Shown: piece by piece, positions 15,006 through 16,561 of the stretch | Layout: each line of letters starts with the position of its first letter | How positions within the stretch are numbered: the stretch's first letter is position 1 | Sequence record: OQ174507.1 | Strand: one strand, 5' to 3' | Origin: Escherichia phage REP8 | DNA length: 64,000 nucleotides | Program-made: the position numbers and the translations under genes | Notes under the pieces: model-generated | What the model was told of the DNA's origin: nothing | Database searches by the model: none | Seen by the model: only the letters and a program-made list of their open reading frames with translations

Positions 15006-15128
15006 TTGGCAGATTTTTTATAAGGCTACTGCCATCCTTCCATACATTACCTAACCAGACCAGACCTTACCTTACCAAACACCACCCCACCTCATTAAAA
15101 GACCCTCTTTAAAGACCTTTTAAAAAGG
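15006..15128. repeat. ~125-bp intergenic repeat element, copy A
   Basis: Shares two near-identical blocks with 16261-16397; plus strand almost G-free. Confidence 0.6.
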
Positions 15129-15146
15129 AGCCTCCGAAGAGGCTAC
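15116..15146 (-). terminator. intrinsic terminator
   Basis: Minus strand AGCCTC-TTCG-GAGGCT hairpin followed by TTTTT. Confidence 0.5.
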
Positions 15147-15155
15147 CTAGTCAAC

Positions 15156-15596
15156 TTAGAAAGGTTTTCTACGTTGCTTGTTAATATTAGCTTTCATAGC
15201 AGCTAAATGGTTTTGCTGTTCAATTAGTCGTGAACGTTCTTGGTGGCTAAGTGCCATAGTGTTCACATTCTCAATCGCTTGAGTGGCTTGCTTTAAAGCA
15301 CGACCAATCTTACCAGACATTTTGCGTTTTGCAATAGTTGCTTGATGCTTAGGTTCAACCACACGATAACCAACACCCATTGAAGCAACCAGATAAATCT
15401 TCTCTTCTTTAAGAAGCTTCTCAATAAACTTCTCAAGCCGGTTTAGACGTGTAAGTGCATAAGCCTTCATTTCATCTTCGTACTTAACAATGTCACCTTG
15501 ATAAGTTGGCTTCACAATACCTAAGAAGGTATCCATCTCAGAATGTGATACAGTGTCACCGTAACTAAACTTTGCTGCTAATGCTTTTGTATTCAT
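15156..15596 (-). CDS. hypothetical protein
   Basis: ORF only. Confidence 0.3.
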   Translation of the reverse strand: MNTKALAAKFSYGDTVSHSEMDTFLGIVKPTYQGDIVKYEDEMKAYALTRLNRLEKFIEKLLKEEKIYLVASMGVGYRVVEPKHQATIAKRKMSGKIGRALKQATQAIENVNTMALSHQERSRLIEQQNHLAAMKANINKQRRKPF

Positions 15597-15598
15597 AA

Positions 15599-16201
15599 TT
15601 AAACGTTACCTTCTGAAATAACTTCTACAGAAAAACGACCAAAGCGTGGACGCCAATCACCTACACCACAAAGGTTACCAGCATTTTCCAGAACCATCAG
15701 AAGTTCCTCTCTGGTGATTTGCTCTTCATCGAACATCAAACCGAACTCTACAGACCAGTCACGGAAGATTGGACGGTAGCTCATAACTCGTGCTGTGCCA
15801 ATCTTAACAGATTTAGCATAGATAAAGTCTGGATTCTTAGCAAGTTCTTGTGGGTTTGCTGGGCAGTTCTTGATAGTCATTGGGAAGACTACATCTGTCA
15901 GCATAATGGCTCTGTCAATTACCTTACCAAGTTTGTTGAGTTTTGCACCAGACTTGATACAAGCCTCAATCATCTCACCGTTCATAACAAAACCTAGCTG
16001 CTCATCGTAGTAACAAGAAGTTACTAGTTGACTTTCTGCTAAGAGCGCATAGTCTTCGTCAGTCTTTTTACGTTTACTGGACAAAGACTTGTGATATTTT
16101 GTCAGAGGGTTTAATGGGTCTGACAACGTATCGTTATGGCTTAAGAAAGGACGAGTACCAGTGATTTTGATATTTAGCAGTTTCATAGCATTTAGCTCCA
16201 C
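15599..16201 (-). CDS. hypothetical protein (true start may be ATG at 16186 with GGAG SD)
   Basis: ORF only. Confidence 0.3.
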
Positions 16202-16260
16202 ACTTTAGTTGATTGTTAAGTTGTTTGTAAAGAACCCTCAACAGAAGACTCTTTAGAAAC

Positions 16261-16397
16261 TTGGCAGATTTTTTTATAAGGCTACTGCCATCCTTCCATA
16301 CATTACCAAACAGTACCGTGCCACAACACACCATACCCAACTCCACCTAACCCTACCACACCTTATTAAAAGACCCTCCTAAAGACCTTTTAAAAAA
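16261..16397. repeat. ~135-bp intergenic repeat element, copy B
   Basis: Homologous to 15006-15128; followed by a further C/A-rich tract to ~16490. Confidence 0.6.
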
Positions 16398-16561
16398 GTA
16401 AGTCTCATTTTAATGTAGCTGAGACTAACTACCCACACCAAACCTTACTTCACCGGACCCTACCACACCCTACCTAGCCTTGCATTACCGTACATCACTT
16501 AAAAACCCTCTTAGAAGACCCTTAAGTGATGCTGGTGAGTACCCGTTGGTTTATGCTGCTC

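Follow-up and report, generated by a model that had tools for sequence, protein, structure and literature searches.

Three intergenic repeats that lie between 15005 and 16531 in a 64-kb stretch of DNA from Escherichia phage REP8 (sequence record OQ174507.1; "the window" hereafter means this whole stretch) are almost certainly vrRNA genes that form, with the protein genes vipr and vap1, a SUSP1-clade locus of the type II VIPR (Viral Interference Programmable Repeat) system. The window is that of a Felixounavirus and shows 100% identity over a 4-kb query to Escherichia phage REP9, the name under which we discuss the locus. The system itself is already known, because the locus is nearly identical to that of the published model phage SUSP1, and VIPR has been described by one group in two 2026 preprints (bioRxiv 10.64898/2026.04.26.720920 and 10.64898/2026.04.26.720927). 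According to both, Vipr is a minimal RAMP protein (RRM core, G-loop and thumb) that is accompanied by an accessory protein, Vap, while the vrRNA is an RNA of ~100 nt made up of 9-16 YNNGG units and an invariant pseudoknotted tail. For SUSP1 they show experimentally that one Vipr protomer occupies each unit in a helical filament that buries each GGY and leaves the NN dinucleotides accessible. These then pair with double-stranded DNA (dsDNA) of the form (NNx)n, a "1-nt skip" rule in which the skipped base is often the codon wobble position, and target pairing leads to an R-loop triplex and transcription repression of competing phages and satellites. The same two preprints report that SUSP1-clade guides are aimed mostly at a satellite phage integrated in E. 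coli; VIPR has been proposed to be older than CRISPR.

For the window, we establish the gene content, the array and tail anatomy, the covariation of the tails, the lack of self-targets, and predicted targets consistent with the published code for two of the three guides. The gain is that REP9-like phages receive annotations for three non-coding RNAs and for two genes so far "hypothetical", that the guides are spelled out and targets predicted, and that there are testable hints of guide exchange, of orphan guides and of guides directed against rival VIPR loci among the Felixounaviruses and satellites. The elements are described neither in the Felix O1 genome paper nor in the PhageMaP (Bas63) paper, and Rfam 15 covariance models run on the region returned a single chance-level match (E=3.1), vrRNAs not being represented in Rfam 15.

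Three guide RNA genes around vipr and vap1

The elements stand out by composition. TATAAGGCTACTGCCATCCTTCC is present only at 15019 and 16275 in the 64-kb window (chance expectation 0), the box AAAGACCCTC..AAAGACC has 4 matches against 0.11 expected, and GC skew falls to -0.77 at the elements, where G makes up 2 of 55, 3 of 70 and 5 of 60 nt of the plus-strand cores. A density of at least 8 ACC per 60 nt is confined to the three elements within the 64 kb, and no such ACC-dense windows were found in the other 22 kb of the REP9 genome. The initial annotation had recognised this extreme strand asymmetry with its nearly G-free plus-strand core, and had also noted that copies A and B share end blocks, which are indeed exact or near-exact and absent elsewhere in the window. 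The minus strand, rightly taken there as the transcribed strand, carries every gene around the elements. The homology between two elements reported there is real, whereas the count is not: alignment and repeat finding revealed a third copy, C, more diverged and abutting B, so that the elements, all on the minus strand, are A (15005-15123), B (16260-16393) and C (16392-16531). The C/A-rich stretch noted after copy B is present and is this third element rather than mere extra sequence, and the 10-bp inverted repeat placed at 16492-16530 exists not as a separate feature but as the 5' hairpin box of C, corresponding to the 7-bp TTAAAAG/CTTTTAA inside the "ATTAAAAGACCCTC..." block of A and B. Searching for further copies thus yielded a third in the window, and it yielded more in Felixounavirus relatives, which carry from 1 to 3 elements per gap. 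Overlooked in that annotation were the 5-nt periodicity (YNNGG)n, the guide code in the variable dinucleotides and the partnership with vipr and vap1.

Read on the minus strand, each element consists of a 5' hairpin box, 11-14 YNNGG pentamers and a conserved 3' tail of ~35-41 nt. The core is a pentamer array in which GGT (at times GGC) recurs in strict 5-nt register, and the intervening 2 nt vary freely between near-identical phages (the relatives compared were tootiki, nataliec, wV8, Felix O1/FO1a, ASO1A, BPS17W1 and 23 IMG/VR contigs). Across 95 Felixounavirus vrRNAs the register is held through 12 units; counted from the tail, Y1 is conserved at a frequency of at least 0.98 and the second G at least 0.96 over units 1-11 (G 0.83 at unit 12), and the first G at 0.65-0.91. 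The NN positions have an entropy of 3.76 out of 4 bits, with 68 distinct guides among the 95 vrRNAs. The tail forms two interleaved helices, and compensatory changes on both sides were found at 10 of 12 pairs in 18 distinct tails. Pairing holds in 85.6% of cells, compared to 31-37% when the 3' partners are slid, and the covariation score was reached by none of 500 shuffles.

In vrRNA-C, the 5' hairpin box (16493-16531) is built from the 10-bp inverted repeat CATCACTTAA/TTAAGTGATG with the conserved loop GGGTCTTCTAAGAGGGT, and a box of this type also precedes the first array in Felix O1, ASO1A, BPS17W1 and SUSP1. Its 12-unit array (16433-16492) reads NN = AC AA AA TA AG GT AG CC GA AA TT GT and is followed by the tail pseudoknot (16392-16432; S1 GTAGT/GCTAC, S2 AGTCTCA/TGAGACT) and a T-run. 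The vrRNA-B box (16366-16393) has the 7-bp inverted repeat TTAAAAG/CTTTTAA around GGTCTTTAGGAGGGT; the array of 14 units (16296-16365; NN = (AA) GT AG TA GG TG AT GT GT AC AC TT AA AT) has GGY on both sides for 13 of the 14, and the tail pseudoknot (16260-16295), the end block seen earlier as shared with A, is of the same "GGAAGGATGGCAGTAGCCTT...TCTGCC" type as in A. vrRNA-A comprises a 5' box (TTAAAAGGTCTTTAAAGAGGGTCTTTTAA, 15095-15123), an array of 11 units (15040-15094; NN = GA GG GG TT AA AA CT CT TA AA AT) and a tail pseudoknot of the GGAAGGATGGCAGTAGCCTT...TCTGCC type (15005-15039). Array and tail together are predicted to span 90-106 nt (15005-15094, 16260-16365 and 16392-16492). Within the boxes the loop GGTCTT(N3-6)AGAGGGT is conserved and the stem is of either of two types, TTAAAAG/CTTTTAA or CATCACTTAAG/CTTAAGTGATG. 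A hairpin box precedes every array in the Felixounavirus clade, and none precedes the vrRNA of the satellite discussed below.

The two genes between elements A and B are vipr and then vap1. The vipr gene (15599-16186, minus strand; the open reading frame (ORF) list has a GTG start at 16201) encodes a RAMP-like protein of 195 aa that matches PDB entry 36pp, "SUSP1 Vipr protein", with E=1.5e-127, falls into phrog_4652 and is 97.4% identical to SUSP1 ALH47069. It keeps H17, K33, E71, M72, R138, C173, D177, W178 and R179, all the contact residues in the cryo-EM preprint except T175. Directly downstream lies the VIPR accessory gene vap1 (15156-15596, minus strand; 146 aa; phrog_5926), 99.3% identical to SUSP1 ALH47068, the product of the gene immediately downstream of SUSP1 vipr and hence at the position to which the VIPR preprint assigns vap1. 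Vap1 homologs adjoin Vipr at 3 unrelated loci. The PHROGs families of both genes are annotated as "unknown function" only, and searching the two cassette proteins against Pfam and NCBIfam gave nothing useful. The slot in the window, between the DNA ligase gene and gp86, is identical in SUSP1, and the neighbouring gp86 is just 34.6% identical to its SUSP1 counterpart, compared to 97-99% for vipr-vap1.

An association of such arrays with this protein was derived independently of the VIPR preprints by an exact scan of IMG/VR for (GGTNN)6GGT, which returned at least 120 loci. Among the matches listed, 43 unrelated viral loci carry arrays with heterogeneous NN, often several in tandem, and these are mostly on the sense strand and adjoin a gene. 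An all-vs-all BLAST of the ORFs revealed one homologous protein of ~180-210 aa on the array strand in 34 of these 43 listed loci, and the 195-aa protein of the window belongs to this array-linked family (blastp E down to 7e-31). The VIPR signature is therefore detectable from sequence alone, as a blind read caught the guide-RNA genes and the pattern scan re-derives the array-protein association. The same scan also gave many plain pentanucleotide microsatellites, (GGTTA)n, (GGTAT)n, (GGTCT)n and (GGTCG)n (for example L034, L038, L046, L052, L053 and L137), often near contig ends or by other short repeats and without a Vipr gene; as far as checked, they are unrelated to VIPR.

Upstream of the array genes, downstream of the ligase gene, lies the sigma70-type promoter P1 (16562-16589, minus strand; TTGACA-16-TATACT, 11 of 12 consensus positions), which is kept at the same place in all relatives examined and likely drives vrRNA-C, vrRNA-B, vipr and vap1. 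An intrinsic terminator (15122-15144, minus strand; AGCCTC-TTCG-GAGGCT and CCTTTTT) follows vap1. A second sigma70-type promoter, P2 (14960-14988, minus strand; 10 of 12 consensus positions), belongs to the downstream gp86 operon, is also kept in relatives and delimits the VIPR region on the right. A 9-bp inverted repeat (TGGTGAGTA/TACTCACCA, 16533-16575) spans the P1 -10 hexamer and could be an operator controlling the vrRNA-vipr operon.

Predicted targets and the skip rule

The satellite was located via its Felixounavirus-like baseplate gene, which 474 of 5,426 complete E. coli genomes contain; five copies were analysed (L152-L156), one of which bears the exact protein accessions cited in preprint Fig. 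S14. It is ~11.5 kb long (L152 4838-16358), encodes a serine recombinase, a tape-measure gene and the baseplate gene (91-96% DNA identity to window 1383-2180), and is inserted in E. coli chromosomes in a DUF72/yecE-like gene or near dinB. The satellite has a vrRNA gene, equipped with a promoter and terminator of its own, and no Vipr was found in the satellites by tblastn. When guides were matched to the five copies under a skip of 1 nt, 24 of 66 unique Felixounavirus guides reached at least 20/24 NN matches; with skips of 0, 2 and 3 nt the numbers were 0, 0 and 1 of 66, and no shuffled guide reached this score.

Guide C matches an orthologous satellite gene (hypothetical, 107-109 aa) at 19-20/24 in 4 of 5 copies, its NN falling on codon positions 1-2, and the predicted satellite site is ACTAACCGATACAGCGTTAGCCCTGAAAAATATCT. 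We regard this target prediction as modest, because the best shuffled guide scored 19. Guide B matches 25 of 26 positions in GTGAGGTATGGGTGGATGGTAGTAGCCACGTTAAAAAT, a sequence made up of the last array unit and the tail that the vipr-proximal vrRNA has at the other Vipr+ Felixounavirus loci compared (L002, L026, L018 and L157 among others), and the guide likewise fits the equivalent stretch of the vrRNA encoded by the satellite (L152 6188-6228). Against the satellites it scores 25/28, above all 200 shuffles, by a margin smaller than a naive binomial would give, as the best shuffled guide reached 23/28 owing to the similar composition of the satellite's G/T-rich vrRNA. REP9 itself carries a "GGAAGGATGGCAG" tail on its vipr-proximal vrRNA, compared to the "GGGTGGATGGTAG" tail at the other 18 of the 19 Vipr+ loci examined; a vrRNA-B tail of the vrRNA-A type is an arrangement unique among the 19, reduces the guide-B self-match to 19/26 and probably explains the near-identical end blocks of A and B. 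REP9 vrRNA-B would then target the DNA of a rival's vipr-proximal vrRNA tail as well as the satellite vrRNA, and REP9 would itself be immune because that tail has been swapped for the other type. This target, like those of the orphan guides below, is a prediction from the published code.

For guide A, an exact 10-unit scan of GTDB genomes returned no match and an exact 9-unit scan of IMG/VR returned one, probably by chance since its flanks fail to extend the match. No self-target of at least 80% was found in the REP9 genome for any of the three guides (best C 17/24, B 19/26, A 17/22). In another Vipr+ Felixounavirus, L028, a guide (vrRNA at locus position ~3267) matches at 20/24 the gp86 allele (VALANGELLKP region) of L004, L005, L010, L013, L015, L020, L024 and L029, a predicted pairing that suggests phage-versus-phage targeting within the genus.

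Alternative explanations and related systems

As a VIPR locus, the region would work as follows: REP9 Vipr would polymerise on vrRNA-A, -B and -C, hide each GGY, read dsDNA through the NN dinucleotides and silence rival mobile elements. The SUSP1 locus resembles that of the window in its gene pair, slot, P1, YNNGG arrays, pseudoknotted tails and satellite target family. The two differ in that SUSP1 has one vrRNA upstream and three downstream of vipr-vap1, compared to two upstream and one downstream in REP9, and all three REP9 guides differ from the SUSP1 guides. Several points weigh against assigning the region to VIPR on these grounds. One Vipr contact residue is changed, from T175 in SUSP1 to V in REP9; the conserved 5' hairpin boxes fall outside the ~100-nt mature vrRNA of the published model, and the accessible preprint text offers no explanation for them; guide C at its best (20/24) stands barely above the best shuffled guide (19/24); and guide A has no match of at least 80% in the five satellites or in 1.5 Mb of loci. 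Moreover, vrRNA expression, Vipr loading and silencing in REP9 are steps that we infer from the 97% identity of its Vipr to that of SUSP1.

Triplet arrays with a 5-nt period also occur in the trp leader of Bacillus subtilis, on which TRAP places many identical subunits, each on a conserved triplet with 2-3 variable nt between them. The repeats bound by TRAP are (G/U)AG, their spacers are uninformative, and the RNA exerts its effect on a terminator in cis. A cis-acting leader or attenuator of this kind, in which a TRAP-like protein binds GGU(N2), picks between interleaved hairpins and controls termination before vipr or gp86, would fit the periodicity, the interleaved hairpins and T-run that follow arrays such as C, and the location of arrays C and B between P1 and vipr. 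We nevertheless consider it highly improbable: no TRAP (PF02081) domain is present in 10 neighbouring proteins, the interleaved hairpins covary as a pseudoknot and not as alternatives, and an attenuator does not predict target information in the NN, which is present only under the 1-nt skip rule. In VIPR, unlike TRAP, the spacers are the guide and the ribonucleoprotein acts in trans on DNA, and the SUSP1 vrRNAs, as reported in the preprint text, are discrete ~100-nt RNAs that co-purify with Vipr. The structured cis-regulatory 5'UTR and the G-quadruplex raised in the initial annotation are not needed, and its two other functional options were right in kind, as the elements encode small RNAs with G/U-rich arrays for protein binding, one Vipr protomer per GGYNN unit.

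The suggestion made there of a mobile-element remnant captures the variable presence of the vipr-vap1 cassette, though not the function of the elements. The cassette is absent from Felix O1, ASO1A, BPS17W1, EC6 and many others, in which 1-2 elements are kept between P1 and P2, and this variability, together with the 97-99% identity of the cassette across genera next to a flanking gp86 at 34.6% and the 1 to 3 modules per gap, could be read as the mark of mobile regulatory cassettes or recombination modules whose repeats serve mainly as homology for the gain and loss of enclosed genes. Such modules are known from T4-type phages as PeSL (promoter-early stem-loop) cassettes, repeated intergenic promoter/hairpin modules flanking variably present genes; these cassettes lack a pentamer array and do not act as guide RNAs. 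As the explanation of the elements, we hold a PeSL-like cassette to be very unlikely, since it accounts for the population genetics of the locus but leaves the strict GGY/NN periodicity, the NN hypervariability and the matches to targets unexplained, and since the enclosed gene encodes the protein that binds these RNAs. Recombination is best taken as a secondary consequence of the repeated tails: in contrast to PeSLs, the repeats of the window serve as RNA genes, and their recombination with one another is incidental.

A purely physical or DNA-level element, be it a Rho-utilisation (rut) site in a C-rich, G-poor antisense RNA from the plus strand, a replication origin prone to R-loops or a minus-strand array of two-tetrad G-quadruplexes, is exceedingly unlikely. 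The GC skew of -0.77 would suit it and the GG-N3 spacing fits two-tetrad G-quadruplexes, yet none of these predicts a pyrimidine after GG at a frequency of at least 0.98, one protein family in 34 of the 43 listed loci or the matches at skip 1, and no plus-strand promoter was found reading into the elements. The TRAP-like attenuator, rut site, R-loop origin, G-quadruplex and PeSL-like cassette all left the hypervariable dinucleotides unexplained. Further candidates considered from the anatomy (a RecA/Chi-like GT-rich hotspot, a Shine-Dalgarno-like ribosome sponge, small ORFs and a variable repeat of the diversity-generating retroelement (DGR) type) were dropped, because the protein association and the literature explained the periodicity.

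With Class 1 CRISPR-Cas (Cascade), VIPR shares, according to the preprint text, a RAMP-fold protein along a guide RNA, a thumb that periodically interrupts pairing and a conserved structured handle that caps the variable guide. The guide of VIPR exposes 2 paired and hides 3 nt in every 5, compared to 5 paired and 1 flipped in every 6 for Cascade, and the preprint text further distinguishes VIPR from CRISPR-Cas in that no protospacer-adjacent motif is needed and the outcome is repression, not cleavage. The VIPR locus differs from Class 1 CRISPR-Cas in that it lacks a repeat-spacer array, the adaptation genes cas1/cas2 and a nuclease, and neither a CRISPR repeat-spacer array nor cas genes were found in 12-20 kb of the window, the sole relation, as the preprint has it, being the RAMP fold of Vipr.

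Orphan guides and neighbouring features

Among the phages lacking the cassette, Felix O1/FO1a (L004/L158/L159) and EC6 (L161/L162) retain vrRNA behind P1, and a genome-wide search of both by tblastn and with a profile of 25 Vipr homologs detected no Vipr or Vap1. The 16 orphan vrRNAs in 11 vipr-less loci are nearly intact, with GG in 8.9 of 12 units compared to 9.7 of 12 at Vipr+ loci. For three of them, satellite targets of at least 20/24 were found. Orphan guides of FO1a and EC6 match the vipr coding sequence of VIPR+ relatives at 20-21/24, that of FO1a in codon phase and at sites that include 15687-15721 (minus strand) of the window, and five rounds of shuffled guides against the vipr coding sequence gave no comparable matches.

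These pairings tentatively raise the possibility, which we rate as somewhat doubtful, that VIPR guides spread in the absence of the protein and are turned against VIPR. A Vipr-less phage could in that case load its orphan guide onto the Vipr of a co-infecting rival, whose vipr would be shut down, and REP9 vrRNA-B with its exchanged tail would be an anti-VIPR guide. Orphan guides find no mention in the accessible text of the two VIPR preprints (10.64898/2026.04.26.720920 and 10.64898/2026.04.26.720927), which do mention vrRNAs targeting other VIPR systems for the P. fulva clade. The satellite vrRNA without Vipr and the orphan-vrRNA results may be new.

Outside the VIPR region, an HTH_3 regulator gene lies at 14026-14325 on the minus strand. 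Farther away, the plus strand carries, at 51927-56789, 6-8 repeated modules of ~80-130 nt apiece, each preceding a small gene and comprising a TTGACA-type promoter, a GGGGAGG...CCCC hairpin and a conserved leader ending AACTAGGAGATTC-AAAATG; repeats related to these modules are noted in the Felix O1 genome paper.

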